DNA of 64,000 nucleotides, from NCBI GenBank assembly GCA_964361825.1, contig CAYICB010000003.1, positions 2,643 through 66,642 of the forward strand. Direction: 5' to 3'. Position numbers and translations under genes: made by a program. The notes under the pieces were generated by a model. That model was not told the DNA's origin, searched no databases, and saw nothing but the letters and a program-made list of their open reading frames with translations. Shown here piece by piece: positions 8,079 to 60,832 of this stretch. Origin of the DNA: an uncultured Candidatus Saccharibacteria bacterium (GTDB taxonomy: Bacteria; Patescibacteriota; Minisyncoccia; Phycocordibacterales; JACOZG01). Each line of letters opens with the position of its first letter. The first letter of the stretch is position 1.

Positions 8079-10196
8079 ATGTCTCTCGAACAAAAATCTA
8101 AGCTAATCCAAACCGCCAAAACCCTCTCTCTCGCCCTCATCCTCACCCTCGGCGCCCACCTCGCCATGGCCAACTGGACCCCACCACCCAATGCTCCTAC
8201 AACTTGTGATAGCAATCCCAGTTCGCCAAATTATGAGCCGGGTTGTGCGCTACCGATTAATGTTTCGGATATCCCACAAACCAAGACGGGGTTTTTACAG
8301 GTTGGTAAATTGATTTCTAATACCAATTTAGAATTTTTTGGAGAAATAATTCCCCCCACTCCTGGAACTGGGGTTGGTGGTGCCTGTGTCGAGGGTCAAA
8401 CAATTAAAAAGAACGACGATACTGGTGAATGGGAATGTACATATCTTGCTCCAGGACTTTGGGTATTTGATGGGATAGGGAGCATTAGACCTGCTGCGAC
8501 GGTTTTTGATGAAGTTCGAGCGGTTAAATTGCGTTTTGAGGGGGAACTTTTACCAGGCGTTCCTGGTACCCCCGCTTGTAATCCTAACCAAACTATTTTT
8601 AAATACGCCCCTAATGATTGGAGGTGCACCTCATTTGCTCCCGGCTATTGGATACTTGATGGAGGTGGACCGGGGCTTACCACAGATAGCGCAAGAGATG
8701 TTAAGATGCTAAAGAATATTCTTTTGCCGAATACTGATCCGGCCGGTACGGGGGGGGTGATAAAGTTCGGCGGACAGGATTTTATTCATAATAGGGGTTC
8801 AGACCAAAGTTTACTGATCAACACTTTTATTGGTGCTGGTGCTGGTGTTGGCACCGGAGATGGTGGTTTAGGAAATGTTGGTGTGGGGACGGAGGCTTTA
8901 ACGGCCGATAATATGACTGGTTTACGTAATATTGCGATTGGTTACGCGTCTCTAAGTAGTTTGACTGGGGGGAATAATAATATTGCCATAGGTTATTCGG
9001 CCGGTGGTAATCTTGGAGCCGGAGGAATTACTGCTAGCCACAACAACATCGCGATTGGTAAAGAGTCTTTGTATCTTGGTGATGGTGGTGATGAAAATGT
9101 TTTAGTCGGCAATGATACCATGAGGGAAAACACAAATACAACATCTGATTACAATGTTGGGATAGGGCAGGCAGCGCTTAGGGTTAATGTTGCGCCCGGG
9201 TTGGTGGCGGTTGGGAAAAATGCGCTAACCTCAAATACTTCAGGCGTGGCGAATGTTGCGGTTGGTTACGGTGCTTTGGCGGCCAATATTACCTCTGCAA
9301 GTAGTACTGCGGTTGGTTATCAGGCTCTAGCTAACAGTACGGCGGGTTTAAATACTGCTATTGGTAGTCAAGCTCTCCGTTCTAATACTGCGGGTACTAG
9401 TAATACTGCTATTGGTTGGCGCGCCCTGTATGAATTAGATGGTGAAGCTTTGGATGATAAAAATACTGTTATTGGGGCCGAGGCGAGCGATTATTTTGAG
9501 GGTGATAGCAACACAATCATCGGTTTTAATGCCGTCTCTAACCCACTTTCACGTCAAGCCAGAGGTAATGGTAATGTGGTGGTGGGAGCGGTGGCTGCGC
9601 AACAATTAGGAGACAATGCTTCCGCTGGCTCTACTGCTACTAGTTACGGTAACAATAATACTATTGTGGGTCACAATGCCGGCCCCACCCTTGTTTCTGG
9701 GGATAGTAACACATTGCTTGGTAATGGCGCCGATGTTACTGCGAGTGGTGTAATAGATGCGGTTGCTCTTGGACAAGGCTCACTTGCCAACAGTACTTCG
9801 ACGGCGGTTGGTCGCAATTCTAACGCTGCTGGTTTTAATTCCGTTGTGATTGGGGCAAATGCTTTTGCCACAGGAAACAACTCTGTGGTTATTGGCACGA
9901 ACGCGGCCTCCGGTGGAAGTGATGTGTTCATTCTTGGATCATCTGCTACCAAGGTCGGCATCAGAAACACTCTTCCTATTAGTCCTTTTCAGCTCGGTTC
10001 GCCTAGTAGTGCGGGTACACCCACCTACGGTCAAATGGATGTTGAGGGTGTTGTTGGAAATTTGAGCGACTGCAATGACATGACAGAAGCCGGGCGTTTT
10101 TATCTTAGTACTAGCACCATACCAAATCGTATGTATGTTTGTGCTATGGTCACGGCTTCTACATACAATTGGAGATATTTGACTCTTTCTCCGTAA
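8079..10196 (+). CDS. large secreted fibre/beta-helix repeat protein (NxAIGxxAL-type repeats, phage tail-fibre / YadA-head-like)
   Basis: signal peptide; same N-terminal W-PPP..TC..PGC..NVS..QTK module as the 6693 protein; >15 degenerate repeats N(T/I)A(I/V)G..AL..NT.G. Confidence 0.65.
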   Translation: MSLEQKSKLIQTAKTLSLALILTLGAHLAMANWTPPPNAPTTCDSNPSSPNYEPGCALPINVSDIPQTKTGFLQVGKLISNTNLEFFGEIIPPTPGTGVGGACVEGQTIKKNDDTGEWECTYLAPGLWVFDGIGSIRPAATVFDEVRAVKLRFEGELLPGVPGTPACNPNQTIFKYAPNDWRCTSFAPGYWILDGGGPGLTTDSARDVKMLKNILLPNTDPAGTGGVIKFGGQDFIHNRGSDQSLLINTFIGAGAGVGTGDGGLGNVGVGTEALTADNMTGLRNIAIGYASLSSLTGGNNNIAIGYSAGGNLGAGGITASHNNIAIGKESLYLGDGGDENVLVGNDTMRENTNTTSDYNVGIGQAALRVNVAPGLVAVGKNALTSNTSGVANVAVGYGALAANITSASSTAVGYQALANSTAGLNTAIGSQALRSNTAGTSNTAIGWRALYELDGEALDDKNTVIGAEASDYFEGDSNTIIGFNAVSNPLSRQARGNGNVVVGAVAAQQLGDNASAGSTATSYGNNNTIVGHNAGPTLVSGDSNTLLGNGADVTASGVIDAVALGQGSLANSTSTAVGRNSNAAGFNSVVIGANAFATGNNSVVIGTNAASGGSDVFILGSSATKVGIRNTLPISPFQLGSPSSAGTPTYGQMDVEGVVGNLSDCNDMTEAGRFYLSTSTIPNRMYVCAMVTASTYNWRYLTLSP

Positions 10197-10331: not shown

Positions 10332-11015
10332 GTGATGCAAAGAAAGGTGGCTTTTGCTCCAGACGAGTTTTATCACCTATATAATCGCGGGAATGACAAA
10401 AGGACGATTTTTCTTGATCAAAATGATCAACTGAGATTTACTCTACTCCTTTGTGTGTCCAACAAGAAACAGACCGTTCACTTGAGTGATCTCTCCAATT
10501 GGCAAGGAGAGTCCTTGACAGCAATTTGGGGCAAAGATTTTGGTGAAAGTTTGGTTGATATTGGCGCTTATTGCTTAATGCCAAACCATTTTCATCTTTT
10601 GGTGCGAGAAAAAACAGATAACGGTATTTCGTTGTTTACTAAAAAACTGCTTACGGGGTATTCGATGTATTTTAACAAGAAACATCAACGAACGGGTAAA
10701 TTATTTGAAGGACCTTTTCGTGCCGAGCGTGTTGCTGAAGATCGACACCTCAAATATTTGTTTGCTTATATTCATCTAAATCCCGTAAAAATTACTGATC
10801 CTAAAAATTGGGAGAGAAAACTTATTCCTGATCCAGAACAGGCAAGGAAATTTTTGAATACCTACCGCTTTTCAAGCCATTTGTATTATGCGGGTCAACC
10901 AAGACCAGAAGATGTAATTCTTAATCCGGTGGCTTTCTCAGAATATTTTCAAAATAAAAAAGAGTTTGGCGAGTTTATCAACGATTGGCTAACATTTGAA
11001 GCCACAGAAAATTGA
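10332..11015 (+). mobile_element. IS200/IS605-like Y1 HUH transposase homologue (RAYT-like)
   Basis: HUH motif in CLMPNHFHLLV, IS200-like fold, conserved Tyr-containing C-terminal region; 227 aa. Confidence 0.7.
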
Positions 11016-11036: not shown

Positions 11037-12788
11037 ATGTGGTTAGACTCGGGGAAAGTCAAACAATTTCTCGTTGACTCTGATTTGGTTAGTGCCAAAG
11101 ATTTTACTGAAGCGGAGGCGGAGGCGAGTCAGGACAATAAATCATTGGAGGAGGTTTTGCTCAATTCCGGCAAAGTCTCGGAAGAAGATTTCCGTCGAAT
11201 GAAGGCTTATTTGCTCGGCATTCCGTATATTAGTTTGTCTAAGCTCAAGGTTGACAAAGAAATTTTGTTTTTGGTGCCCGAGCCAATTGCTCGCAAGCAT
11301 AATATTGTGGCTTTCGCGAGAAGTGATAAGGGTCTAGAGGTGGCGATGCTTGATCCGGAGGATCTCCAAGCGATTGAGTTTATTAAAAAAGGGGTGGGGC
11401 TCAAGATTTTGCCTCGGCTAACCGATACCGAGTCAATAAAAACCATTCTCTTGCAGTATCAGAAGAGTTTGAAGGCCGAGTTTGGCGATATTATTAAAAC
11501 CGAGGCAGGTAAAATTGGGTTAGTGCCCGAAGAAGCGGGCAAAGAGGTGGGTGAGGGTGAGCTTAAGAAATTAGCCGAAGATTTGCCGGTGGTGCGAATT
11601 GTCGACACCTTGCTCTCGCATGCGATCACCCAAAAGGCCTCTGATATCCATATTGAGCCCTTCGAAACCGAGGTGGTGGTGCGTTATCGGATTGATGGCG
11701 TTTTGCACGATGCAATGATTTTACCCAAGAATGCTGGTTCGGGCATTACGGCGCGGATCAAAATTTTGGCCAATTTGCGCTTGGACGAGAAGCGTTTGCC
11801 CCAAGATGGCCGGTTTAAGATTGAAGCGGCGGGGAATAAGGTGTCTTTTCGCGTTTCGATTTTGCCGACCTATTTTGGGGAGAAAATTGTGATGCGTTTA
11901 CTCCCTGATTCTTCGCGCGGACTTACCCTAGAGCAAGCGGGCTTCCACGGTTTAGGTTTGGAGCGAGTGCATGAGGCAATGCGGGGCACGGTGGGGATGA
12001 TTTTGGTCACTGGCCCTACCGGTTCGGGTAAAAGCACCACACTCTACACTATGATGGATATTCTTAATACGCCGGATGTAAATATTTCGACCATTGAGGA
12101 TCCAATTGAGTATCAGATGCCGCGGATCAATCAAACGCAGGTAAAACCAGATATTGGCCTCACTTTTGCTGCCGGCTTGCGCTCGCTGGTGCGCCAAGAC
12201 CCCGATATTATTATGGTCGGTGAGATTCGTGATAAAGAAACGGTGACGCTGGCCATCAATGCCGCGCTCACTGGCCACTTGGTACTCTCTACCCTCCACA
12301 CCAATTCGGCCGCCGGCACGATTCCGCGTTTGCTAGATATGGGAGCCGAAAGCTTCCTCATTATTTCTACGGCTAAGTTGATTGTGGGTCAGCGCTTGGT
12401 GCGTAAATTATGGCCGAGCAAAGAGGCTTACACCCTTTCGGAAGCTGAGCTTAAGAGTTTGGCGGCTAAGGTGGATCTTGATCGGATGCTTGAGCTTTTG
12501 CGGGCGGAAAGGGTGGTGAAGGAGAAGGCGAATTGGAAAGATATTCCTTTTTACCGCGCGAAGTCGGTGCCCGATTGCCTAGAGGGTTTCCAAGGTCGAG
12601 TGGGAATCCATGAGGTGCTGATGATGTCGTCCTCACTTAAAGAGTTGGTGATTGCCGGAGCTACCGCCGAGAAAATTGAGGCTCAAGCCAAAAAGGAAGG
12701 GATGATTACCATGCTCGAAGACGGCGTGTTTAAGGCGGTGAGTGGCGTGACCACCCTAGAGGAGGTGCTCCGCGTGGTTTCGGAGTAA
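11037..12788 (+). CDS. pilB: type IV pilus assembly ATPase PilB / GspE family
   Basis: GSPII_E N-terminal domains, Walker A GPTGSGKSTTLY, Asp/His boxes. Confidence 0.9.
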   Translation: MWLDSGKVKQFLVDSDLVSAKDFTEAEAEASQDNKSLEEVLLNSGKVSEEDFRRMKAYLLGIPYISLSKLKVDKEILFLVPEPIARKHNIVAFARSDKGLEVAMLDPEDLQAIEFIKKGVGLKILPRLTDTESIKTILLQYQKSLKAEFGDIIKTEAGKIGLVPEEAGKEVGEGELKKLAEDLPVVRIVDTLLSHAITQKASDIHIEPFETEVVVRYRIDGVLHDAMILPKNAGSGITARIKILANLRLDEKRLPQDGRFKIEAAGNKVSFRVSILPTYFGEKIVMRLLPDSSRGLTLEQAGFHGLGLERVHEAMRGTVGMILVTGPTGSGKSTTLYTMMDILNTPDVNISTIEDPIEYQMPRINQTQVKPDIGLTFAAGLRSLVRQDPDIIMVGEIRDKETVTLAINAALTGHLVLSTLHTNSAAGTIPRLLDMGAESFLIISTAKLIVGQRLVRKLWPSKEAYTLSEAELKSLAAKVDLDRMLELLRAERVVKEKANWKDIPFYRAKSVPDCLEGFQGRVGIHEVLMMSSSLKELVIAGATAEKIEAQAKKEGMITMLEDGVFKAVSGVTTLEEVLRVVSE

Positions 12789-12797
12789 AATTAAATT

Positions 12798-14003
12798 ATG
12801 CGCTTTCGTTATCGAGGCAAAACAGCAAACGGTGAGGAGACTGAAGGCTTGCGCGATGCCAAAGACAAGTTTGAATTATCGCGCGAGATGCGGAATCAGG
12901 GCATTACTTTAGTTTCGGCCGAGCTCGTGGTAGAGGAGAAGGGGTGGTTCAACCTCAATTTTTCTGGTCGGGTAAAAATGAAGGATAAGATTGTGTTTGC
13001 TTCTTCACTCGCCTCCATGATTTCGGCGGGGCTCTCGCTCGCGCGAGCGCTCAATGTAATTGAGCGGCAAACTAAAGCTAAGGGTTTTAAAGAAATTATC
13101 AAAACGCTGGAAGAAAAGATCAAAAATGGCGAGAGCTTTAGCGCGGCGCTGGCCACTTTTCCTAAAGTTTTTCCGCCGGTATTTGTGGCCATGACCTCGG
13201 CGGGTGAAGAATCGGGTAAATTGCCGGCGGCGCTCCAAACGGTGGGGGAGCAAATGGCCAAGAGTTATGAATTGCGGCGCAAGGTAAAAGGCGCAATGAT
13301 TTATCCAGCAATTATTATTGTGGTGATTATTATTATCGCCATTTTGATGATGATCTTTCTGGTGCCCAATATCACCTCGCTCTTTAAGGAGATGAATGTG
13401 GAATTACCACTCTCCACGCGCGTGGTGATTTTTACCAGCGACCTTATTAGCGGCCACCCGATTTTATTTTTTGCTGGTTTGCTGGCGCTGGTTTCGGGGT
13501 TTGTGTCGCTGACACGAAGTAATTTTGGCCATCAGCTAATCTCGCGGGCGGTGTTGCGCCTACCCCTGTTTAAAGTGATTGCAAAACAAATGAATTCGGC
13601 GATGACCATGCGCACCTTATCTTCTTTGCTCTCGGCGGGCGTGGGAATGGTTGAAGCCATCAATATTACTGGGAAAGTGGTGCAGAATCCGGTATATCAA
13701 AAAGCGTTGACGGAAGCGGCGGCGGCTATTTCTAAGGGCGAAGTGTTGTCGAACATTTTTAAGGCCAAAGAAGATATTTATCCGGTGTTGGTGGGAGAAA
13801 TGGCCGAGGTGGGCGAGGAAACCGGTAATTTAACCGGCATGTTGGAAAAAGGCGCCACGCTTTATGAGGAGGAGGTTAATCAAGCTACTAAAAATCTCTC
13901 CACCATTATTGAGCCCGTGCTCATGATTATTATTGGGATTGCGGTGGGCTTTTTTGCTGTTTCGATGATGGGGCCAATTTACTCTTTGAGTAATCAAATC
14001 TAA
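12798..14003 (+). CDS. pilC: type IV pilus platform protein PilC / GspF family
   Basis: two GspF repeats, polytopic membrane protein. Confidence 0.85.
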   Translation: MRFRYRGKTANGEETEGLRDAKDKFELSREMRNQGITLVSAELVVEEKGWFNLNFSGRVKMKDKIVFASSLASMISAGLSLARALNVIERQTKAKGFKEIIKTLEEKIKNGESFSAALATFPKVFPPVFVAMTSAGEESGKLPAALQTVGEQMAKSYELRRKVKGAMIYPAIIIVVIIIIAILMMIFLVPNITSLFKEMNVELPLSTRVVIFTSDLISGHPILFFAGLLALVSGFVSLTRSNFGHQLISRAVLRLPLFKVIAKQMNSAMTMRTLSSLLSAGVGMVEAINITGKVVQNPVYQKALTEAAAAISKGEVLSNIFKAKEDIYPVLVGEMAEVGEETGNLTGMLEKGATLYEEEVNQATKNLSTIIEPVLMIIIGIAVGFFAVSMMGPIYSLSNQI

Positions 14004-24858: not shown

Positions 24859-24939
24859 GAGTTCATCACAATGGGTGGTGGATTCATGGGTAGAACATTA
24901 AAAATTTAATGGGGCTTCGGCCCCAGAAAGGAAGTGTTT

Positions 24940-25965
24940 ATGACACTTCAGTTTGCAATTCTCGACCCCCGCAACATTCCGACCGCCGCGGAGGCCAACG
25001 ACAAGGTGTTCGCAAATCCGGTTTACGGAATCGAAGTAACGGTGCCCGCGCTCGCAAAGCGCTGCATCGCGAATCTCGACCCGCAACACACCGGTGGCGA
25101 TGCCAATCGCGCGGCCATCGAAGACGCGCTGACGGCCGAGCTCCCGACCGAGGGTTCCACTCTCGCGACGGTTCGCGCCGATCTGGACGCCGTCGGCGCG
25201 ATGGTTGTTTTCGGCCTTAGATTGAGAGGCCGAATGATAGAACCCTCTGCATGGAGGGTTTGTTCAATTTGTGGGGCGGGGCTACAATCTTGCTTTTTTG
25301 TTTGCGGCCACTGCGGTTGGGTGGTTGGGAGCCACTCTAACGAAGCAGTGGCGACCAGATTTCAACAGGTGGCCGCTGCCGACAAGTTCGCGCGTGGTGG
25401 CTGGTTGGGCCCCAAACCGTTACCAACCAAGGAAAACCCTTGGCCGAGCGAGGGGGCAGCGGATTCGACTCAATCGCTCGCGGCAATCGCCGCGGCGGTT
25501 ACGGACTTCAAGGTCCCGATGGCCGATCGCGTCGCCACGATGGAGAAGTGGCTACTGACGGGTGAAGAGCCCAAGCAGTACCGCGACTCCGTCGAGAAGG
25601 AACGGCTCGACATGATCGCTGCCCTCGAAAGCGGAGCGATCAGGTGCGAGACGCGCTCCGGCGGCAAGATCGCGGTCGTCGAGAGCACGCACCGAGCGGC
25701 CACCAGCGTGGGGTACTCACTCGCGCCAGTCGTGGTTGCTCGCAATCCGGCCTTCAAGCTGGGCGGTGGTGAGGCTCACGCGAAGTACACGGTTTGTGCC
25801 TTCGAGGCAGGCAAGTTTGCGGACATCAAGTCCGCGCTTGCCGAGCTCGCGACGATCGAAGCTGGTTGGGGCGGTTCGCCCGTCATCGGTGGTAGCCCCC
25901 AGGGTGTGAGTTCCGCCTTGACGATCGATCAGGTCGTCGAGGTGGTTGAGAAGCATCTTAAGTAA
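24940..25965 (+). CDS. hypothetical 342-aa protein with central Cys cluster (CSICG..CGHCG)
   Basis: SD AGAAAGGAAG; GC-rich; no family recognised. Confidence 0.55.
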   Translation: MTLQFAILDPRNIPTAAEANDKVFANPVYGIEVTVPALAKRCIANLDPQHTGGDANRAAIEDALTAELPTEGSTLATVRADLDAVGAMVVFGLRLRGRMIEPSAWRVCSICGAGLQSCFFVCGHCGWVVGSHSNEAVATRFQQVAAADKFARGGWLGPKPLPTKENPWPSEGAADSTQSLAAIAAAVTDFKVPMADRVATMEKWLLTGEEPKQYRDSVEKERLDMIAALESGAIRCETRSGGKIAVVESTHRAATSVGYSLAPVVVARNPAFKLGGGEAHAKYTVCAFEAGKFADIKSALAELATIEAGWGGSPVIGGSPQGVSSALTIDQVVEVVEKHLK

Positions 25966-47916: not shown

Positions 47917-47940
47917 TGAAATACGGTGTACGCTAAATAG

Positions 47941-48192
47941 ATGACCAGCCAAGTGGTATTCAAAATTGATAGTAAGTTGAAGCGCGCGGCTCAAAGCCAA
48001 GCTAAAGCCAGCGGTTTAACCTTGAGTGAGTGGTACAAACAAGCCACAGAATCTTTCTTGACCGCGCCAGAAATTCCGAATGCGAAAACCGCTCGCTCGC
48101 TTAAATCGGCCCTGAAAGATGTGAAATTAGGCCGGAACTTTTCCCCGTCTTTTGATAATATTGACGATATGATTGCGCATCTCGAAAAATGA
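47941..48192 (+). CDS. type II antitoxin, DinJ/RelB family
   Basis: 83 aa, RHH-like N-terminus; immediately precedes and overlaps a YafQ-like gene. Confidence 0.7.
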   Translation: MTSQVVFKIDSKLKRAAQSQAKASGLTLSEWYKQATESFLTAPEIPNAKTARSLKSALKDVKLGRNFSPSFDNIDDMIAHLEK

Positions 48193-48449
48193 TTGTTGAC
48201 TATCATCGCCTTTTTAAGAAAGATTGGAAACATTTACAACCTAAAGTTAAACAAGCATTTCGAGCGCGATTTCAAATTTTCAGGACCAACCCTTTTAATC
48301 CCATTTTAAGTAATCATAAACTCCAAGGATATTATGGTGGTTGTCGTAGTATTAATGTCACTGGTGATTACCGAGCAATTTTTGTTGAGGAAATGGATTC
48401 AATAAAGTTTTTACGGATTGGCACTCATGCTGAATTATATGGGAGATAA
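48189..48449 (+). CDS. type II toxin, YafQ/RelE family mRNA interferase
   Basis: HKLQGYYGGCRSINVTGDYRAIF..FLRIGTHAELYG aligns with YafQ. Confidence 0.8.
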   Translation: MIVDYHRLFKKDWKHLQPKVKQAFRARFQIFRTNPFNPILSNHKLQGYYGGCRSINVTGDYRAIFVEEMDSIKFLRIGTHAELYGR

Positions 48450-48468
48450 AAAACAAAAATTTTAAGAC

Positions 48469-49341
48469 ATGGAAGACCTTTTCGATCCAAGGAAGATAGA
48501 AAAAACTTGGGCATTAGAAAATGTAACCCAAGAAAGAGTTTTGCAACAAAACGAAGACCGATTGGTGGTTTTGTTTAACTCCGATCAAGGAAAGTTTGTT
48601 TGCAAAACAGCTAGTCCTTGGAAGACGGCCGTAGCACTTGAGAAAGACACTACTGTTTTCCAATTTTTACTGGAGCAAAATTTTTCTCATGCTCCTAAAT
48701 TTTTGTTGACCAAAAGCGGAAAAAGGTTTGCGGAACTAGACAGCAGGCTTGTTTATCTAATGGAATATGTCGAGGGGAAGAAGCCGGAAGCGACCGTCGA
48801 GACTTATCAGAAACTCGGGGCGATGACGGCGGAGCTGCATTTGCTAGAAAACTATCCCCATAAAACAGATTTCGATCCCGCAATAATTATTGCTACTAAT
48901 TTTCCCGATAACGCTAAGAAACCACCTTTTGGTGAAGAATATTTGAAAGTTGCGGCGACCTTGCCTAATTTTAGTGTTTTTTCTCAAACTCTTATTCATA
49001 CTGACATTGCTCCGGCCAATGCGATCGAGAAAGCAGACGGCTCTCTGACGCTTATTGATTGGGATGATGCTGGTGTTGGTTCGGCGGTGCTTGATTTGGG
49101 TTACCCCTTACTGTCTCAATTTACAACCGAAGATTTGGAGTTGAGGCCAGAATTAGCACGAGCCTTCTACGGAGCCTATCTGGCTAAACGAGAAATCACA
49201 GCCACAGAAAAGAAAGTTTTGTTTTCGGCCGGTTTATTTTTTGCTCTGATGTATCTGATTTATGGTGATACTACTAAGCGCTGGGAGAGACTCAACTGGG
49301 CGCTAAAACATCGAGAAGAGATTGAGGGGATGATTCCATAA
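48469..49341 (+). CDS. aminoglycoside/choline-kinase-like phosphotransferase (APH family)
   Basis: HTDIAPANAI (Brenner motif) and IDWDDAG. Confidence 0.75.
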   Translation: MEDLFDPRKIEKTWALENVTQERVLQQNEDRLVVLFNSDQGKFVCKTASPWKTAVALEKDTTVFQFLLEQNFSHAPKFLLTKSGKRFAELDSRLVYLMEYVEGKKPEATVETYQKLGAMTAELHLLENYPHKTDFDPAIIIATNFPDNAKKPPFGEEYLKVAATLPNFSVFSQTLIHTDIAPANAIEKADGSLTLIDWDDAGVGSAVLDLGYPLLSQFTTEDLELRPELARAFYGAYLAKREITATEKKVLFSAGLFFALMYLIYGDTTKRWERLNWALKHREEIEGMIP

Positions 49342-49554
49342 CAGTGGATAAGTAACTTGCGAGGGGGGTGAGGAGAGTTATAATAGATGGGAGGTTATTT
49401 GGAAGTGATCTAAGTTAATTTTTTAGGGAACTCACATAATTCTAGGCCGTGGTCTAGGATTGAGAGATCCCCCTTGGGTAAGCATCTCTTCCAATTAACC
49501 CCCAGAAGTTAAGCCCCGACGCGAGTCGGGGCTTAACTGTGTTAAAATGGCTCA

Positions 49555-52613: not shown

Positions 52614-52737
52614 TCGTTAGTGCTGGTATGGTAATCGGTTTTGCCACAAAAGTCAAATCTTGCTAGGCTGGGTATGGCTATTGGTTCTCTGAGGCAAAAT
52701 TGCTCTTTATAATCATCAAGAAAGGAGGTGATTTAAG

Positions 52738-52953
52738 GTGGTTAAATTCTGGAACCCTAAAACCGAATGGGAAGAAGCCAAAAAGTATTATGGCTTTACT
52801 GATGAGGAGGCCGCAATGTACTTCTACAGCCAGAGCCTGCTTCCGGAGGGCAAAAAGCGTTTCTTGCCTTCTGTTGGGCAACGGGCCGAGGTTTGGGAGC
52901 TAGCTCAGGCTAGAATTAGGCGCAAGAGACCGGGAGGTGGCGTCGATGATTAA
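52738..52953 (+). CDS. hypothetical 71-aa protein (GTG start, SD AAAGGAGG)
   Basis: good SD; 3' end lies in the left copy of the direct repeat. Confidence 0.4.
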   Translation: MVKFWNPKTEWEEAKKYYGFTDEEAAMYFYSQSLLPEGKKRFLPSVGQRAEVWELAQARIRRKRPGGGVDD

Positions 52954-53018
52954 GGGGCGAGTGAAGAAGAAAAAAAGCCGTTTGTTGGTTAACCCCCAAC
53001 CTACGGCTTTTTGATTTT
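52931..53018 (+). repeat. direct repeat, left copy (SD + 22-codon Lys-rich ORF + terminator hairpin)
   Basis: 53-nt identical core GAAGAAAAAAAGCCGTTTGTTGGTTAACCCCCAACCTACGGCTTTTTGATTTT shared with 53697-53751. Confidence 0.85.
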
Positions 53019-53640
53019 TATGACAGACAAATCAAATGTGGACACATCACTAAGGTCGTCTTGGTTGGGCACAACAAGATCGATCGTGGTAGCATTGAAT
53101 AACTTCAAAAAAATGACTGTCGCTTTATCACTCATCCCTCCCGAACGGATCGAGAAAATAATTTTGGTAATCCGCAACCAACGAGTGATTATCGATACTG
53201 ATCTGGCCGCCCTGTACGGGGTAACCACCAAGCGACTCAATGAACAGGCCAAGCGTAACCGTGATCGTTTTCCCGCCGATTTCATGTTTCATTTGACCGT
53301 TAATGAGTGGGCCAACTTGAAGTCGCAATTTGCGACCTCAAGTGCTGACCATGGTGGTCGTCGTACTCTTCCGTTTGTGTTTACCGAACATGGCGCTATC
53401 ATGGCTGCCAATATTCTCAATAGCCCCGTGGCGGTCAAAGCGAGCATTCAGGTTGTGCGCGCCTTCGTCCGTCTACGGCGAATGCTAATTGATAACGCCG
53501 AGCTCGCGAAGAAGCTGTTTTCCCTCGAAGCGAAGTACGATGACCAGTTCAAGGTCGTGTTCCGGGCGATCCGTGAGCTGATGACGCCACCACCGGAGCC
53601 GGATAAGCCGAAAATTGGGTTTCGGGTGGATAATAAATAG
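53011..53640 (+). CDS. ORF6N-domain protein (phage/mobile-element-associated, KilA-N-related); alternative start at 53113
   Basis: VIIDTDLAALYGVTTKRLNEQAKRNRDRFPADFMFHLT..ATSS..GGRR matches ORF6N domain. Confidence 0.7.
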   Translation: MIFMTDKSNVDTSLRSSWLGTTRSIVVALNNFKKMTVALSLIPPERIEKIILVIRNQRVIIDTDLAALYGVTTKRLNEQAKRNRDRFPADFMFHLTVNEWANLKSQFATSSADHGGRRTLPFVFTEHGAIMAANILNSPVAVKASIQVVRAFVRLRRMLIDNAELAKKLFSLEAKYDDQFKVVFRAIRELMTPPPEPDKPKIGFRVDNK

Positions 53641-53660
53641 TTGGCCATTTGGGAAAATGC

Positions 53661-53751
53661 AAAGGAGGAAAGGTGATGACCCGGGCGAAGCGAGTTAGGA
53701 AGAAAAAAAGCCGTTTGTTGGTTAACCCCCAACCTACGGCTTTTTGATTTT
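53661..53751 (+). repeat. direct repeat, right copy (SD + 23-codon Lys-rich ORF + terminator hairpin)
   Basis: same 53-nt core plus weaker upstream similarity; stem AAGCCGT/ACGGCTT then TTTTTGATTTTTT. Confidence 0.85.
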
Positions 53752-53815
53752 TTGTGGCAAGGCTTAGCCTTGTTGAGATGACTTGAATTGCCCGATTTAA
53801 TCAATGTGATCAATA

Positions 53816-55435
53816 TTAATCCCCAATGTATTCTACCGAATTACTAAACAGATCGAACGCGGATTCAATCTGCCCTCTCGAATTAGTTGTATACCCGCCA
53901 ACACTAATTGAAACGATCTTATTTGGAGTAGCAAAATCAAATGAGCGAACTAGCCAATCGCCCTTACTGGTTGTGAGTGTGTTCCAATATGAAACAAAGG
54001 GTACTTCTGTGTCTAGATTTATCCCACTCTCATCCTCAATAAACTCTATGTGCTCACTCGATTTTTGAACGATTTTTGTTAAATCATCGAGTGTTGCATG
54101 CTTGCTTTCTGGTAGATTAATAAAACTAATTAGATAGCGAAAACCGTCATTACTATACACATCATAAAAAACAAAGTTTTCATTCTCGGTACGCACGGGT
54201 TTATCAGGAAAACCAACGCTCCACCCCTCTTTTAAACTATAAGTTTTCCACCCCACAGACCCATGGTTCTCTGTTTGGTCTAAATCTCCTTCGGTAGAGA
54301 TGTGTTTAATTTCTCCAAAGTTATTTCCAAGAATGTTTTCCATTTCTGACAATGCCTCCTCCTGTGCCCTGACCGTTACGTCGGCAACAATAATTACTCG
54401 CTTTTCGTTACCCCTCTGGTCGGTGAATGAAAGGTATGGCAAACCTACCGGTTCGTCACTGAAAAATTTTGATAAGTAGTCATTGAGTTCACGGGAATTA
54501 TTACAGGAATCAGATTTAACAACGAAATTTGATTTGTAATTCTCTATGTCTAGTTCCCTCACAATATTGCACTGTTCTAGGTTTTCTAAACGAGTTATTA
54601 CCCCAAGTTTGTCTGACAAAATAACAACGCTATAGTAGTAACTACTCTGATTAATCCGTGCAACAATACCCAAATATGCAATATAACCAGAAACGCCAAG
54701 TAATAGTATCAGTATAATAGTGAGTAGGGTCGTGTTTTTCGGCCTTTCGGGTTTTACAGTCAGTTGTTCTTCCTTAGAAACATTGTGTGGCAAAGTATAT
54801 TCCTCATTTTTAAATTTATAAAACAGATAGATTGACCCAGCAACGGCCAAAACTAGTGTGGCTAGACCGAACTCAACATTCGTAATATCTGTCACATGTA
54901 GCGAAATGTTAAATAAACTGTGAACAAGTACTGCCAAAATAAATCCTTTGAAAAATAATTTAGTTCTCTCTTTCTCGCCTCTAAACCATAATAATCCCCA
55001 GTAGAAACCAAAAATACCTGAGGTTGCCAAATGCATAAGTGTTGTGGCAATCGCGCGAAGGCCAAATGTATTCAATACATCTGTCCAAATAAATATAGAA
55101 TTGAACCCCAAACTATGGTTCATTTGATAGGACTCATAGAAGTATTTGAAATTCTCAACAAAAGCAAAAGCTGCTGCCGCTACCACCATATAAATGATCC
55201 CGTCAACAATTTGAGTAAAATACTTTTTATTCCTTTGAACGACCGTTTTAGCAATCCAGTACTTAACAAATTCCTCGATCGGAGCAACAAGAAAAAACGT
55301 TGAGATAACGCTCAGCCAAATTAATTTCGCAGTAGTGTCTGGTGAACTAAATAAATACTGCTCCCCAATACTTTCTGCAATATATGTCACTGGGAGTGCC
55401 AGAATTACGCCGAGAAGAAAGATCTTCAAAAGCAA
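53816..55435 (-). CDS. PrsW-family intramembrane protease fused to a large extracytoplasmic domain
   Basis: PrsW motifs EEFVKY, FAFVEN, H..G in the TM region; AT-rich codon usage unlike neighbours. Confidence 0.65.
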   Translation of the reverse strand: MLLKIFLLGVILALPVTYIAESIGEQYLFSSPDTTAKLIWLSVISTFFLVAPIEEFVKYWIAKTVVQRNKKYFTQIVDGIIYMVVAAAAFAFVENFKYFYESYQMNHSLGFNSIFIWTDVLNTFGLRAIATTLMHLATSGIFGFYWGLLWFRGEKERTKLFFKGFILAVLVHSLFNISLHVTDITNVEFGLATLVLAVAGSIYLFYKFKNEEYTLPHNVSKEEQLTVKPERPKNTTLLTIILILLLGVSGYIAYLGIVARINQSSYYYSVVILSDKLGVITRLENLEQCNIVRELDIENYKSNFVVKSDSCNNSRELNDYLSKFFSDEPVGLPYLSFTDQRGNEKRVIIVADVTVRAQEEALSEMENILGNNFGEIKHISTEGDLDQTENHGSVGWKTYSLKEGWSVGFPDKPVRTENENFVFYDVYSNDGFRYLISFINLPESKHATLDDLTKIVQKSSEHIEFIEDESGINLDTEVPFVSYWNTLTTSKGDWLVRSFDFATPNKIVSISVGGYTTNSRGQIESAFDLFSNSVEYIGD

Positions 55436-55551
55436 TTTGCGCGGTTCAGGTTCTCGGTAGTCCTTTCTTAGAAATATAATGAGCCAAAATAAACTGGGCA
55501 GGAGAGCTAAAATTAGAAGAAAAAAATTGTCATTGTTATATTATAATCCTA

Positions 55552-55857
55552 TTACTCTGACCTTTTTCTGTTTGATATTCCCTCCTCGTGTTGTTTTACG
55601 AGCTTCTTGTAAATAAAGTGATTGGCTACAAGGATAAGAACTATGACCACAACAAGAGCTGAGGCATTATCAATAATTGTAATATCATTGATGTTTATTC
55701 TTTCAGACCCGACATTGTATCCGTAAATTAAACCTACAATGAAAGACAGTACCCAAGCAATGGGCTTAAAGAGGATTATTACTACTAAATATTCTTTCCA
55801 CGAATTTCCAAAGGTTATCTTAGGTTTCCAGCCATCACTTGCTCTATATTTTTTCAT
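55552..55857 (-). CDS. small two-TM membrane protein, hypothetical
   Basis: 101 aa, AT-rich, two hydrophobic helices. Confidence 0.4.
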   Translation of the reverse strand: MKKYRASDGWKPKITFGNSWKEYLVVIILFKPIAWVLSFIVGLIYGYNVGSERININDITIIDNASALVVVIVLILVANHFIYKKLVKQHEEGISNRKRSE

Positions 55858-56145
55858 ATTAATTTTTTATTTTGCCAACAAACACAAAAAGCCCACCGCC
55901 AGGCGACAACCTTTCGGTCGTCCACACCTCTTTCGAAGCGTGACCAATCACGGTGAACCTAGACGATGGGTTCTTTACCCGTGATTGGTTTTTTAAGCCA
56001 TGCCCAACTAAACAGTTGGGTTTAGGCCATTATTAAATTGTGCTTACAATTTAGCATTAAATTCGCACAGAGAAAACAACCCGTATCAATTATATGATCG
56101 AGTGGTTTACCATGAGCGAGTTCGTCTTTCAACGAACGAGTCGAA

Positions 56146-56524
56146 TGGAGATGCCGGGAATCGAACCCGGGTGCAGAAAGAGATCTCAAGTAGGTCTACA
56201 AGCGTAGTTGGTTTGGTGTTGTCGGGAGTGGCATAGAAAGCCAACAAAAACGCACACCCCGTAGCTCTAGGTTTTCGTCTCTCGCCTCGAGCGCGGGCGG
56301 GAGCTTATTCCGAATTTATGACACCACTTTGATCTTATCGGAAGTCAGACCAAGTGATGTCGCTTAGGCTAAAGCGTAAGCGAAAGGAAGAGGATATGGC
56401 GAAGCCACACCTTCTCCCTCGTTAGATAAGTTGGCACTTATCAGTGTGCCGCGGTTTTACGAGTGGGCGGCAACTCGGCTTGCATAGCAAGAGAGTGATC
56501 CTTCTGTCGAAGCCAATCATCCCC
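56146..56524 (-). ncRNA. ssrA: tmRNA (SsrA)
   Basis: 5' GGGGATGATTGGCTTCGACAG; 3' T-arm CCCGGGTTCGATTCCCGG + acceptor CATCTCC with G3:U70 (Ala identity); internal frame ends ..PFAYALA-TAA; immediately downstream of smpB. Confidence 0.88.
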
Positions 56525-56533
56525 TTATGTAAA

Positions 56534-56980
56534 TTAACTTTTCAATGATCTTTCGATCTGTCTTTTGGCCTCGCGCTTTTTAATGCTTTCGCGCTTGTCG
56601 TGCGTTTTTTTGCCGCGAGCGAGGCCAATTTCCAGCTTGAGCTGGTTCCGCTTACTATACAGTGATAATGGAATTATTGTCAAGCCGCGTTCATTGGTTT
56701 TGCTGGCCAGTTCCTTCAATTCTTTCTCATTGAGAAGCAATTTGCGTCGTCGCTCGGGCTTATAATCCTCGGGTGTATTGCCGGGCTGATAGGGGGCGAT
56801 GGTGGCGCCCACCAAGTAAGCTTCGCCGTTTTCGAAACTGATATAACTGCCGGCCAGCGAGGCGCCGCGACCGCTTTTAAGCGATTTGACCTCAAGGCCG
56901 AGCAAAACCAAACCCGCCTCCCATTTCTCAAGGATTTCGTAGTCGAAAGTGGCTTTTTGATTGCGAATCGCGGTGGCCAT
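56534..56980 (-). CDS. smpB: SsrA-binding protein SmpB
   Basis: SmpB family sequence (IAENRKA.., basic C-terminal tail). Confidence 0.9.
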   Translation of the reverse strand: MATAIRNQKATFDYEILEKWEAGLVLLGLEVKSLKSGRGASLAGSYISFENGEAYLVGATIAPYQPGNTPEDYKPERRRKLLLNEKELKELASKTNERGLTIIPLSLYSKRNQLKLEIGLARGKKTHDKRESIKKREAKRQIERSLKS

Positions 56981-57026: not shown

Positions 57027-58946
57027 GTGATGAAAAAGATGTCAAAATTGAATAAAACCAGTCCGCGAGGCTTTGGTCAATTTGGTCGCCAAATTGCTTC
57101 CACGGTCTTGATTTTTCTCGTTTTGCTCGGAATCTATTCTGCGGTGACCAGCAATCAGCAAACCGCCAAAGAGCTAACTTTATCAGAATTAGCCCAAGCG
57201 ATTAATCAGGGTGAGGTGGCCAAAATTGTGATTCAAGGCGATGCTTTAGCTGTGACCCTGCAAACCGGGGAAGAGCTTCGGTCGCAAAAAGAGGCCGAAA
57301 CTTCGCTCTCCGAAAGTTTGGCTAATTATGGCGTTTTGCCGACTAGTTTGGGCGGGGTTTCGGTGGCGGTGGCTAATCCCTCGGGCCTTACTTTTTGGTT
57401 GCTCAATTTATTGCCTTTTATTTTACCAGCGATTTTTGTACTTCTGATTTTTTGGTTTATCTCGCGCCAAGTGCGCGGGGCTTCGGTGCAAGCGTTCTCT
57501 TTTGGTCAATCGCGCGCGCGAGTAATTGACCCCAATGATCAGTCGCAGAAAATTACTTTCAAAGATGTGGCTGGCGTAAAGGAGGCCAAAGAAGAATTGT
57601 TAGAAATTGTCGATTTTCTCAAAAGTCCAAAAAAGTTTTTAGACATTGGCGCCAAGATTCCCAAGGGTGTTTTGCTTATTGGTGCGCCGGGGACCGGTAA
57701 AACTTTGTTGGCGCGCGCGGTGGCGGGTGAAGCGGGTGTGCCCTTCTTTTATCTCTCGGGTTCGGAGTTTGTTGAGATGTTTGTAGGCGTGGGCGCTTCG
57801 CGCGTGCGCGACCTCTTCAAAATGGCCAAGAAAACGGCCCCAGCGATTATTTTTATTGATGAAATCGATGCCATCGGTCGTCATCGCGGTGGCGGCATGG
57901 GTGGCGGCAATGATGAGCGCGAGCAAACACTTAATCAAATTCTCGTGGAGATGGATGGCTTCGAGCCTAATGAAAAACTGATTGTAATGGCGGCCACCAA
58001 TCGGCCTGATGTGCTCGATATCGCGCTTTTGCGCCCCGGTCGCTTTGACCGTCGCGTGGTGCTCGATAAGCCGGATCTTAAAGATCGTGAAGAAATTCTT
58101 GGCATTTATGCCCGCAAGAAACCGCTCCACGAGGATGTGAACTTGCGCGTCATTGCTCAACGCACGCCCGGTTTCTCTGGCGCGGATCTCGCTAATGTGA
58201 TGAATGAAGGCGCGATTTTGGCGGCGCGCGAGAATCGCAAGCAGATTACGCAATACGATCTCATTCGCTCGGTGGAGAAGGTAATTCTTGGTCCGGAGCG
58301 CAAGAGTCATATCTTGTCTGAACGAGAAAAGAAAATCACGGCTTACCACGAGATGGGCCATGCGCTCATTGGCTCGGTTTTGCCGCATTCGGATCCGGTG
58401 CACAAGGTCTCGATTATTTCTCGCGGGCATGCGGCGGGCTACACGCTTAAATTGCCGTTCGAAGACCGCAAACTGGAGTCGAAGAAAGAATTCTTGGATG
58501 AAATCGCGGCGCTCCTCGGTGGTTATGCCGCCGAGCAACTGATTTTTGGCGATATTACTACCGGCGCTTCTAATGATCTTGCGGTGGCGACCTATACGGC
58601 GCGTAATATGGTCACCAAGTATGGTATGAGCGAGAAGCTCGGGCCGGTGGCCTTCGACACTGGCGGCGAACGCCACTTGGTGAGCGGCGGGCAACTAGTG
58701 GAGAAGGCGTCATCGGAGGCGGTGTCGGCGCTCATTGATCAAGAAATTTCTAAAATTCTTAGCGAAGGTCTGACGCGCGCTAATCAAGTGCTTACCGATT
58801 ACCGCGCCGCTCTCGACGCGATGTCGGAAGAACTGATTAAAGTCGAAACCATCGATCGCGAAGACTTCGATAAACTGCTTATTTTGAACGGCATCAAGCC
58901 GAAGGAGGATACTAATAAGGTTGTGGATAACTTATCGGCCCGGTAG
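57027..58946 (+). CDS. ftsH: ATP-dependent zinc metalloprotease FtsH
   Basis: two N-terminal TM, AAA Walker A/B, SRH, HEMGH zinc site. Confidence 0.95.
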
Positions 58947-59006
58947 GATTCGAACCTACAACCAGCCGTGTATAAGACGGCGGCTCCACCATTGAGCTAC
59001 GGGCCG
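58935..59006 (-). tRNA. tRNA, anticodon UAU (Ile, AUA-decoding), no encoded CCA
   Basis: cloverleaf: acceptor CGGCCCG/CGGGCCG, D GCTC..GAGC, anticodon stem GCCGT/ACGGC with loop CTTATAC, T-arm GTAGG-TTCGAAT-CCTAC; overlaps ftsH stop by ~11 nt on the opposite strand. Confidence 0.7.
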
Positions 59007-59088: not shown

Positions 59089-59841
59089 ATGAACAAATCT
59101 CTTATTAGTTTCTTTTTGGTGTTTGCTTTGGTTTTGGCGCCAGTTTTTACTGTTAGTGCTAAATCGGTCAATGAGAAAAAAAGTTTGCTTTCGCGTTTAT
59201 TGGCGCGTTTTCAGCGAGTAGAGAAAGTGGAGCGCGTGGTATTAGAACCGGTGGTGGAGATTAATCAGCCCGCGATCAATGCCGAGAGTTTATCACTGGT
59301 TTCGAGTAATCCGCCGTCTGGGGCCATTAGAACTGGTCAACCATCTAATCCTGATGGCACCGGCTTTTGGGATCCTAAAGGCGCTTGGCAAACCATTGAG
59401 GTGATAATGAGTGGTAATACCGCTTCGGTGGCGCCAGAAATGTTTGAGGTTAAGGGGACTTCGGCCGATACGCCTAAGGTCACTGGTATTATGCCGAGCG
59501 AGAAGGCGGGAGCGGTTACGCTGGTTTTAAGTCACCCGATTCAAGTTGGTTGGACCACGATTGTTCTAAAATCAAGTGGTCAAACTATTAATCTGGGTTA
59601 TTTACCCGGAGATGTGGATCAAAGTGGCGCTTTTACTGCTGCTGATTGGCTAAAGTTAATCGACGCTCTTAATGGAGTGGCTGATTTGCCTCTCTACATG
59701 ACCGATATCGATAATAGCGGTGTTTTTACCCCGGCTGATCTCTTGCGTTTAATCGACATGATTAATGGCGCAGACCATTTTGTGGCCCTCAACCTTTTTG
59801 GCGCTTCGATCCCTGCCTTGCCAGAGGTAAGTCTTAATTAA
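59089..59841 (+). CDS. secreted protein with C-terminal dockerin-like Ca-binding repeat pair
   Basis: signal peptide; DVDQSGAFTAAD and DIDNSGVFTPAD loops each followed by LxxLIDxxNG. Confidence 0.55.
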   Translation: MNKSLISFFLVFALVLAPVFTVSAKSVNEKKSLLSRLLARFQRVEKVERVVLEPVVEINQPAINAESLSLVSSNPPSGAIRTGQPSNPDGTGFWDPKGAWQTIEVIMSGNTASVAPEMFEVKGTSADTPKVTGIMPSEKAGAVTLVLSHPIQVGWTTIVLKSSGQTINLGYLPGDVDQSGAFTAADWLKLIDALNGVADLPLYMTDIDNSGVFTPADLLRLIDMINGADHFVALNLFGASIPALPEVSLN

Positions 59842-59845
59842 ACTG

Positions 59846-60832
59846 ATGAAGAAGCGCCTTTTTGCTTTTTTGTTGGTTTTGGTTTTTGGCGGTGTTTTAC
59901 CCTTAGGAGCTTCGGCCGAAGGCTTTTTAACCGAGACGATTGCTGGACTTAAGGCGCAAATTGCCGAATTGGAAGCGCGGTTAGCTCAACTCCAAGGTTT
60001 AGAAGTTGGCGAAACGGAGCAAGGCTTTCTCAACCGAAATTACCAATTGGGTGAAACTGGACCAGAGGTCATTGCTTTACAAGACTTCTTACGTGCCAAA
60101 GGTTTTTTTAGTTTACCCCAGTCCACTGGTTATTTTGGCGAAGTCACGCAAAAGGCGCTTCGGGCTTACACAGAATCTTTGAGTAAAACAGTTACTCCAG
60201 TAACAACGGTAATTACTACTACCATTTTAGCTACCTCTACGCCCACCACTACGCCGTTGGTGGTAGAGAAGCCACTTCCCGTTACCGGCTTTGGCTTTAA
60301 GGCGGTTAAACCACCAGCTGAAGCCATTGATGCTCGGAGTCCGGTTTCGCTTGAGCCAAACAGTAAAGAGATTTTTGGCTGGCAAGAATTTGAGTTTGCT
60401 TTTACTCCTGATCCCAAAACTAGGGCAAAAAAGCCAGTTTTGGCCGATTTTAGCGTGGAAACGGCCAAACCAGATTTCGATTTGAAAGTGGTGGCGGTGG
60501 TGGCTAGCGATCCGGTGGTGGTGAAGCTAAGTCAACCCATTCCGGCCGGAGTGTGGACCAAGGTTATCCACAAGCCCACACAAACCACCTTCCGTTTTGG
60601 TTACCTTCCGGGGGATGTTAATCAGGACGCTTTAGTGAGTTATGAGGACCTGCTTTTATTGATTGATGTGGTAAACAAGGTTAAATCTGCCCCAGATTAC
60701 ACGGCAGATATCGATCGTAATGGTTTGGTGAATCGGGCTGATCAGCTCGCTTGGCTTAATTTGGTTAAAACTGGCGAGGGAGAAAGTTCTTGGCATCGAC
60801 ACTCCTTGCCAAGCGAAGTCATCCCAAGTTAA
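59846..60832 (+). CDS. secreted protein: coiled-coil, peptidoglycan-binding domain, C-terminal dockerin-like repeats
   Basis: PG_binding_1-like LGETGPEVIALQDFLRAKGF..GYFGEVTQKAL; DVNQDALVSYED / DIDRNGLVNRAD. Confidence 0.55.
   Translation: MKKRLFAFLLVLVFGGVLPLGASAEGFLTETIAGLKAQIAELEARLAQLQGLEVGETEQGFLNRNYQLGETGPEVIALQDFLRAKGFFSLPQSTGYFGEVTQKALRAYTESLSKTVTPVTTVITTTILATSTPTTTPLVVEKPLPVTGFGFKAVKPPAEAIDARSPVSLEPNSKEIFGWQEFEFAFTPDPKTRAKKPVLADFSVETAKPDFDLKVVAVVASDPVVVKLSQPIPAGVWTKVIHKPTQTTFRFGYLPGDVNQDALVSYEDLLLLIDVVNKVKSAPDYTADIDRNGLVNRADQLAWLNLVKTGEGESSWHRHSLPSEVIPS

Follow-up and report, generated by a model that had tools for sequence, protein, structure and literature searches.

A LOOT RNA gene and an AT-rich PrsW fusion gene in the variable interval between ssrA and infC of a Patescibacteria genome

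We analysed a stretch of 64,000 nt (“the window”, always meant at its full length) from an uncultured groundwater Candidatus Saccharibacteria bacterium, a member of the Patescibacteria (CPR), and here describe the interval between ssrA, the gene of transfer-messenger RNA (tmRNA), and infC. This interval measures 3,532 bp (52614-56145). Starting from ssrA, it holds the gene of a LOOT small RNA (sRNA), an AT-rich pair of genes of which one encodes a PrsW-type intramembrane protease joined to an orphan domain, an ORF6N-domain gene between two direct repeats, and a short orphan open reading frame (ORF). An earlier note on this DNA had read the AT-rich genes as a decayed island remnant adjoining ssrA which, together with the ORF6N gene, formed a scar of ~3 kb. 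The idea of a remnant at an ssrA hot spot is supported by synteny, as is that of a single scar; the extent of the scar has to be corrected to the 3,532 bp given above, and the AT-rich genes do not adjoin ssrA. Comparison loci are numbered L001-L172 and comparison proteins carry P numbers. The features of the locus are:

56534..56980, minus strand: smpB (ORF), the conserved left anchor, homologues of which adjoin ssrA in 20 or more Patescibacteria loci
56146..56524, minus strand: ssrA (tmRNA), complete, with tag ANLSNEGEGVASPYPLPFAYALA; found by ARAGORN and as a full-length Rfam RF00023 match of 131 bits
56029..56145, minus strand: spacer of 117 nt between ssrA and LOOT
55905..56028, minus strand: LOOT sRNA gene (Rfam RF03000), full length, from a covariance-model match
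55885..55909, minus strand: intrinsic terminator closing LOOT, from a terminator scan; right edge of the AT-rich block
55552..55857, minus strand: tm101, a 101-aa orphan ORF containing two hydrophobic segments; the first of the two AT-rich genes
53816..55533, minus strand: PrsW-ectodomain fusion gene, taken from the ATG at 55533; the uninterrupted listed ORF is 53816-55435
55520..55526, minus strand: T7 homopolymer, site of the frame shift, from three-frame translation
54650..55435, minus strand: PrsW intramembrane protease domain, from Pfam, alignments and AlphaFold2 (AF2)
53819..54658, minus strand: C-terminal orphan domain of 280 aa after the eighth transmembrane (TM) helix, predicted to be extracytoplasmic
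53690..53752: 63-nt direct repeat, copy 2, with a bidirectional terminator hairpin; left edge of the AT-rich block
53113..53640, plus strand: ORF6N-domain gene, from Pfam, PHROG and PADLOC; convergent with the PrsW gene
52957..53019: 63-nt direct repeat, copy 1
52738..52953, plus strand: 71-aa orphan ORF, the gene of the variable interval nearest to infC, also gene-called in L001
52101..52613, minus strand: infC, the conserved right anchor, from tblastn synteny; the blastn alignment with L002 picks up again at 52612

The AT-rich DNA starts ~260 nt away from ssrA. The earlier note had placed it directly against the ssrA 3’ end, but the 117-nt spacer, the LOOT gene and its terminator (55885-56145) intervene. 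Since the guanine-plus-cytosine (GC) content changes sharply at both edges, one might suspect that a metagenomic mis-assembly fused AT-rich foreign DNA into the contig. The junctions recur, however, in L001, a separately assembled contig of 5,448 bp from a Hainich groundwater metagenome, which crosses both of them on its way from ftsH to rplT and differs from the window by 8 single-nucleotide polymorphisms (SNPs) and 0 indels over 5,415 bp. Because the same junctions are found in an independent assembly with these 8 differences, the interval is not chimeric, and mis-assembly is so improbable that it hardly needs to be entertained.

The block 53816-55857 has a GC content of 0.371, versus a window mean of 0.480 (standard deviation (sd) 0.035, 1-kb windows), and the window minimum, 0.359, falls inside it. 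GC at third codon positions (GC3) is 0.362 in the PrsW ORF and 0.356 in tm101, the overall GC of which is 0.35, compared with a mean of 0.499 (sd 0.068) over 66 ORFs, i.e. a z-score of ~-2. The tetranucleotide distance of the block is 0.0365, above all 124 sliding 2-kb windows (mean 0.0197, sd 0.004), and the block ranks 4th in the window by dinucleotide delta*. Thus, the marked drop in GC that had been noted from the letters holds on quantitative analysis, with GC3 at ~0.36. The rest of the interval is host-like: GC is 0.49 for LOOT, 0.51 for the ORF6N gene (GC3 0.58) and 0.51 for the 71-aa ORF, while 55858-56145 has an overall GC of 0.42. The remaining low-GC3 ORFs of the window are likewise accessory (an IS200-like transposase, a ParE toxin and an APH kinase without counterpart in L002), which indicates that low GC marks accessory genes in this genome. 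The IS200-like Y1 transposase ORF (GC3 0.33) lies at 10332-11015 of the window and the ParE toxin ORF (GC3 0.40) at 5739-6056.

Comparison loci were fetched with an SmpB query, 80 from species genomes and 80 from metagenomes. The closest relative, L002, is a complete Patescibacteria chromosome of 716 kb (SmpB 71% and FtsH 89% identical). Its alignment with the window extends over ftsH, smpB and a 5’ portion of ssrA, breaks off, and runs again from infC to a beta-CASP gene; between the ssrA 3’ end and infC, blastn finds nothing alignable. The gene order ftsH, smpB-ssrA-gap-infC-rpmI-rplT is kept in nine related Patescibacteria loci, where the gap between ssrA and infC is ~20-230 bp in L011, L013, L022 and L023, leaving the two genes almost touching, and 1.7-4.4 kb in L002, L007, L009, L015 and L020. 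None of the nine encodes a homologue of the window’s interval proteins, and the gap ORFs appear to differ locus by locus. By tblastn, the four interval proteins have 0 homologues in any syntenic smpB-ssrA locus, and among all 172 loci their matches are limited to the PrsW-homologue and ORF6N loci that were fetched with those proteins as queries. The comparison with relatives which the earlier note had proposed as a check therefore came out in its favour, L002 and the eight other syntenic loci being without these genes. Because the gap is shorter than 0.25 kb in four lineages and, in the other five, holds 1.7-4.4 kb without homologous proteins, the 3,532 bp of the window look inserted. Judged from these alignments, the ssrA-infC site is a hot spot at which insertion and rearrangement recur, and the window’s interval is lineage-specific, with the qualification that the relatives are distant. 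In L009, 17 nt of the ssrA 3’ end are repeated exactly 170 nt downstream of ssrA (9102-9118), which resembles an attachment-site (att) scar.

Composition and synteny both bear on the possibility that the two AT-rich genes are ancestral and vertically inherited, and that their low GC merely follows from membrane-protein amino-acid usage or weak expression. Both proteins are indeed hydrophobic, with the low GC at second codon positions seen in membrane proteins, stand-alone PrsW is common on the chromosomes of such bacteria, and the relatives are distant. But the deficit extends to third positions (GC3 0.36 vs a mean of 0.50) and to tetranucleotides, and other membrane-protein genes of the window are ordinary in GC3 (0.55 for ftsH, for example). 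Moreover, none of the nine syntenic loci has the genes, in four lineages the gap is too short to accommodate them, and the ectodomain and tm101 are without homologues in the compared loci. Vertical descent is thus very unlikely.

We searched the window for the means by which such DNA could have moved. No copy of the last 25 nt of ssrA with up to 3 mismatches is present anywhere in the window, and blastn-short with the last 80 nt gives chance 9-10-mers only. Pfam identifies no integrase or recombinase among the interval ORFs, and tblastn with three serine recombinases is empty over the window (E<=1e-3). Both absences had already been remarked upon in the earlier note. In a tmRNA alignment made to find a hybrid ssrA 3’ end, the 3’ part of the gene is simply more divergent. 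A candidate vestige of a recombinase 3’ end in the 117-nt spacer, where the antisense translation EFVFQRTSRMEMPGIEPGCRKRS was compared with the C-terminus of the L003 recombinase EFVCTNSHDVEMGGIEPPCRRCS, was rejected as too weak, most of the match being antisense to the conserved T-arm.

A link between the AT-rich genes and mobile DNA, which was missing from the earlier note, is provided by the LOOT gene lying between them and ssrA. Weinberg et al. 2017 reportedly list the LOOT motif as one of their candidate RNAs; on its biology, our literature search found nothing. The window copy scores 92.7 bits (gathering score 46.4; E 3e-17), covers model positions 1-121 of 121 and folds into four hairpins with GAAA loops (-64.9 kcal/mol, z -5.3). 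In its length, family hairpins and GAAA loops it is a regular member of RF03000, with no structural difference. Its terminator consists of the stem TTGTCGCCTGGCGGTGG then GCTTTTTGTG, and the tail GGGCTTTTTG is also found after LOOT in L003 and L008.

These last loci place LOOT in a mobile context at ssrA itself. In L003/L082 and L008, from Nomurabacteria and Yonathbacteria, ssrA is followed by a gene for a large serine recombinase (541-546 aa), the 3’ end of which overlaps the last 71 nt of ssrA; a MerR-like gene comes next, and LOOT lies 3.3 kb downstream in the same orientation as ssrA. An ssrA-linked recombinase is also present in L004. Sequence at 14789-15042 of L003 resembles (82-100% over 34-74 nt) that directly 3’ of ssrA in the recombinase-free loci L006, L009 and L010. 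Because this 3’-of-ssrA sequence reappears ~6.9 kb downstream in L003, the ~6.9-kb segment that includes LOOT is an insertion. L003 and L008 are collinear as far as LOOT, beyond which their genes differ except for one common block of ~150 nt. Among phage sequences, a LOOT-specific pattern matched four IMG/VR contigs, three of which carry bona fide LOOT (74-79 bits); the neighbours are a serine recombinase and a DNA methylase in L170, and portal and SU10 major-capsid genes in L171/L172. Every LOOT copy that we found apart from the window’s, in what is a small sample, hence lies in a phage contig or a serine-recombinase element. This link to phages and recombinase elements is a new observation from a handful of loci, not an established property of the RNA.

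Some further features of these loci were recorded. After LOOT, L008 encodes a membrane-anchored trypsin-like protease (12352-13353), and L003 (11663-14366) a HATPase_c_3/Hypoth_Ymh protein (Pfam) followed by a 352-aa ORF, which we read from sequence alone as a cytosine DNA methyltransferase. The fourth contig that matched the LOOT pattern, L169, has no LOOT by Rfam; it contains a group II intron RNA at 2938-3026. An ORF of L171 (565-1668) was similarly read as a reverse transcriptase. The conserved sequence directly 3’ of ssrA recurs in several Nomurabacteria/Yonathbacteria-type genomes (L003 14789-15042, L006 8949-9019, L009 8966-9038, L010 9090-9123) and holds an inverted copy of the tRNA-like acceptor/T-arm end (TGGAGATG...GGGAATCGAA); with no Rfam match there, the sequence may represent an RNA that has escaped annotation or what is left of an att site.

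Because all other LOOT copies found are in phages or integrative elements, we read the window’s order of ssrA, LOOT and cargo as that of an element without its recombinase. The whole ssrA-infC interval would be accessory DNA in a hot spot and is most likely, a view we hold with moderate confidence, the immobile remnant of a LOOT-carrying element or prophage that used a large serine recombinase at ssrA. Such an element would have inserted downstream of ssrA, as in other Patescibacteria, and what would be left of it is, in order, LOOT with its terminator, the AT-rich two-gene cargo, the ORF6N gene within its 63-nt repeats, and the 71-aa ORF. The cargo cassette would comprise tm101 and the PrsW protease, joined via an eighth TM helix to the 280-aa outer domain. 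Loss of the recombinase and of any att scar would have made the segment immobile.

The closest parallels are the serine-recombinase elements of L003/L082, L008 and L004, with which the window shares the position after ssrA, the orientation of LOOT and variable cargo after LOOT. They differ in keeping the 541-546-aa recombinase and the MerR-like gene between ssrA and LOOT; the window has neither, and its LOOT is 117 nt from ssrA. Genomic islands and prophages of the Islander type integrate at tRNA and tmRNA genes (Hudson et al. 2015, PMC4383910). As in these, the window’s interval lies just 3’ of an intact ssrA (from 56145), has a foreign composition, varies between relatives and combines phage-type with orphan cargo, whereas it is only 3.5 kb long, and no integrase, displaced ssrA fragment or att repeat was found. 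Because the integrase and the att repeat are missing, the interval is a remnant only and does not carry the formal Islander signature.

Several observations weigh against an origin of all parts in one element. The interval is a compositional mosaic (0.37 for the cassette, 0.49-0.51 for LOOT and the ORF6N gene), which suits several events equally well. Some relatives’ gaps hold housekeeping-type genes (metK, ribonucleotide reductase), i.e. rearrangement also fills the site. With SmpB at 71%, even the closest genome is distant, and an empty site was not found in any close relative; among the matches listed in the SmpB metagenome scan, none is closer than 61% and none has an empty site. Stand-alone PrsW is an ordinary chromosomal gene in similar bacteria, one homologue (P0007) having tsaD, a tRNA synthetase and HSP20 for neighbours, and the PrsW portion of the fusion could have been a host gene that moved here. 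Finally, the single-element origin is argued by analogy with ~5 independent LOOT loci, and the window contributes no recombinase, att repeat or displaced ssrA fragment to it.

Many of these points would fit equally a piecemeal filling of the site, with LOOT as a resident host sRNA and the AT-rich pair, the ORF6N cassette and the 71-aa ORF each arriving separately: the mosaic GC, the ORF6N gene’s own 63-nt flanking repeats, the lack of a recombinase or att scar, and the diverse, partly housekeeping-type genes in the gaps of relatives. It is LOOT that argues for a common origin, since its other copies are all in phage contigs or in the recombinase-bounded insertion at ssrA, and since it was not found in the ssrA-infC interval of the nearest relative, L002, even at permissive thresholds. 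We therefore consider piecemeal filling a serious but rather unlikely account and retain the remnant of a LOOT-carrying element as our preferred one. A decayed integrated element is in itself of a well-known kind; the cargo protein is unusual. The genomes of Patescibacteria are tiny, and few mobile elements have been recognised in them. An ssrA hot spot with remnants beside intact serine-recombinase elements helps to map gene gain in these bacteria, and LOOT, an orphan RNA, gains a genomic context (phages and integrative elements) that can guide functional work.

On the infC side of the AT-rich pair, the ORF6N gene (PF10543) encodes a phage anti-repressor-like DNA-binding protein (111.5 bits vs a cut-off of 27.8, 2e-32; PHROG anti-repressor 3e-23; PADLOC candidate PDC-S05 7e-51). 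It is bracketed by the two 63-nt direct repeats, which are 97% identical and have no further copies in the window. Each repeat holds a strong bidirectional terminator hairpin (for copy 2, -26.7 kcal/mol, z -4.7), and the repeats may have been left by the insertion of a cassette or by duplication of a terminator. The AT-rich pair is thereby bounded by repeat copy 2 on one side and by the LOOT terminator on the other, a layout that recalls phage morons. Morons are AT-rich, independently transcribed accessory genes within prophages; the cassette resembles them in its GC below that of its neighbours, its bounding terminators and its membrane-protein genes, and differs from them in that no promoter was identified and that the surrounding prophage is no longer recognisable. 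No Pfam, NCBIfam, PADLOC or PHROG family matches the 71-aa ORF beyond copy 1.

The PrsW domain itself is unambiguous, and its motifs had been correctly recognised before. It matches PF13367 at 1e-30, with 107 bits for the listed ORF (cut-off 23.5), and contains EExxK, FAxxEN, H and HxxxN, the last of which reads HSLFN. The invariant residues E89, E90, K93, E129, N130, H170 and H207 are all present (E89, E90, K93, H170 and H207 from a 33-sequence alignment); in the alignments, E-E-x-x-K, F-A-x-x-E-N, R, H, G and H are invariant and all kept in the window protein. They agree with the published PrsW active-site motifs, namely EExxK, a histidine in TM5 and HxxxD/N (PMC4602095). A total of 32 homologues, 28-45% identical and 239-276 aa long, were compared, all of them stand-alone; four homologue genes with fetched contigs, including those of three of these 32, lie on DNA of low GC (0.36-0.44). 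In the AF2 model, the predicted local distance difference test (pLDDT) score is mostly 86-98 over the first ~250 residues, with 62-76 in three 10-residue blocks, and the best fold match of the protease in the PDB is APH-1 (8oqy_C, probability 0.99, TM-score 0.60), which fits the known superfamily. Because every family-invariant residue is kept, the protein is predicted to act as a membrane-embedded protease; when expressed, it would cleave envelope or membrane substrates, and the outer domain would pick or sense the target.

The earlier note’s 539-aa protein proved to be a shortened reading of this gene, because codons for residues invariant in the family lie ahead of its TTG start at 55435. 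The 34 codons upstream specify invariant P, S and E and near-invariant W, L, D and P, and tblastn alignments with homologues begin at 55468-55495. With these codons included, the Pfam score goes up from 107 to 118 bits and the NCBIfam score from 45.6 to 64.4 bits, the profile match now reaching position 1-2; AF2 models the upstream helix with a pLDDT of 81-93, and counting it gives seven TM helices in the protease domain. No in-frame ATG, GTG or TTG lies upstream of this conserved first helix. The sole ATG, at 55533 and 18 nt past the tm101 stop, is 1 nt out of frame: between it (MTIFF...) and the PrsW frame, the reading frame shifts by one base inside the T7 run. This run forms a possible -1 slippery heptamer, U_UUU_UUC, three codons ahead of the zero-frame stop, and the frame beyond it is open for 573 codons. 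The 221 nt around T7 are identical in L001, to which P0001, a 524-aa version gene-called from a later start, also leads.

Because the ATG is out of frame across T7, the gene may have been freshly inactivated, may be switched by tract length or may be read by a -1 slip. To judge from the sequence, the present allele is probably off or decaying. A fully working fusion, expressed by a -1 slip on the heptamer, by T7 phase variation or from an ATT or CTG start, is a possibility that we take seriously and yet doubt. The frameshift falls exactly where a slippery heptamer is formed just before a stop, the long open frame downstream keeps all invariant residues, and two haplotypes share the allele. T7 is short for phase variation, however; the two haplotypes are near-identical, with one non-synonymous SNP, and thus powerless to detect selection; and a recent inactivating mutation accounts equally for the facts.

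PrsW of Bacillus subtilis performs the site-1 cleavage of RsiW, an anti-sigma factor (Ellermeier and Losick 2006, summarised in PMC4602095). The window protein belongs to the same Pfam family and shares with it EExxK, the TM5 histidine, HxxxD/N and the helical fold. It differs in having an extra TM helix, a 280-aa outer domain and a frameshift. With 64 bits (45.6 as listed), it also stays far below the 225-bit cut-off of NF033739, the NCBIfam equivalog of PrsW as RsiW site-1 protease, and no anti-sigma partner is evident.

Downstream of the protease domain, the fusion continues with a loop rich in lysine and arginine, an eighth TM helix and 280 net-acidic residues. Because lysine-plus-arginine counts alternate between loops (5, 0, 5, ..., 6), in a positive-inside pattern, the 280-aa domain is predicted to lie outside the cell. 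It has no Pfam or PDB sequence match, and an exhaustive HMMER scan of 1.84 billion representatives returned the domain itself and two spurious matches, P0002 and P0003. These were rejected as homologues, both being repeat proteins in which one chance similarity of 40 aa is multiplied by the repeats. A word-indexed search returned only the protein itself for the full sequence and nothing for the ectodomain, missing even P0001 and hence being an unreliable negative. AF2 models of the ectodomain are unusable (pLDDT 36 alone, <50 in the full-length model), and a PsbP match at rank 24 (E 2.9, probability 0.13) does not constitute evidence. No relatives of either the fusion or tm101 were found in INPHARED phages or IMG/VR. 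The earlier description of tm101 as a 101-aa protein with two TM segments is borne out by its two hydrophobic segments; it has no significant Pfam, NCBIfam, PADLOC or PHROG match and no tblastn match in the 172 loci. At the level of sequence, the combination of PrsW with a 280-aa domain of this kind is unique.

We favour target selection or sensing for the protease as the role of the ectodomain, with effector release as a minority alternative. Iyer et al. (2011, PMC3239186) proposed PrsW-peptidase fusions as parts of polymorphic toxin systems, and the arrangement of PrsW at the N-terminus with a variable domain at the C-terminus suits that scheme. By analogy, the C-terminal domain could be an exported effector or toxin freed through self-cleavage by a PrsW channel-protease, with tm101 as helper or immunity protein; that the domain is unique and stands in a variable mobile context would fit. 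The published examples, however, have twelve TM helices and recognisable toxin domains (PMC3239186), compared with eight helices here and no toxin family match for the C-terminal 280 aa. The putative immunity gene would moreover be upstream, not downstream, where the neighbour is the convergent ORF6N gene. We regard a toxin as distinctly unlikely and keep to an ectodomain that would select or sense the target of the protease.

Three points seem worth keeping: LOOT has a mobile context, a PrsW protease carries an orphan ectodomain, and the gene of this fusion is frameshifted at a T7 run. The fusion is a previously unseen architecture in a protease family known for envelope-stress signalling, and so far a curiosity. 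More speculatively, and with less than an even chance of being right by some way, LOOT may be a signature non-coding RNA of a family of phages and integrative elements that use serine recombinases in Patescibacteria; at least some of these insert at ssrA, and the cargo slot of the family would lie just 3’ of LOOT. The PrsW fusion would then be a phage-borne, T7-switchable surface protease for exclusion or for remodelling of the host surface in episymbiotic bacteria.

A few observations elsewhere in the window are added here. The APH-family kinase ORF (48469-49341) is inside a second lineage-specific insertion (47917-49537): the beta-CASP gene and ndk, which are adjacent in L002, are separated in the window by 1.6 kb of lower-GC DNA with this aminoglycoside/choline-kinase-type phosphotransferase. 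A 343-aa ORF at 24934-25965 is a high-GC outlier (GC 0.62, GC3 0.71) with no Pfam match, and the region around it (23.5-26.5 kb) has the second-highest tetranucleotide distance of the window. A tRNA-Ile gene with anticodon UAU (58935-59006, minus strand) shares the last 12 nt of the ftsH ORF. Finally, 59089-60832 encodes two neighbouring predicted secreted proteins with dockerin-type domains, one of which also has a peptidoglycan-binding domain.

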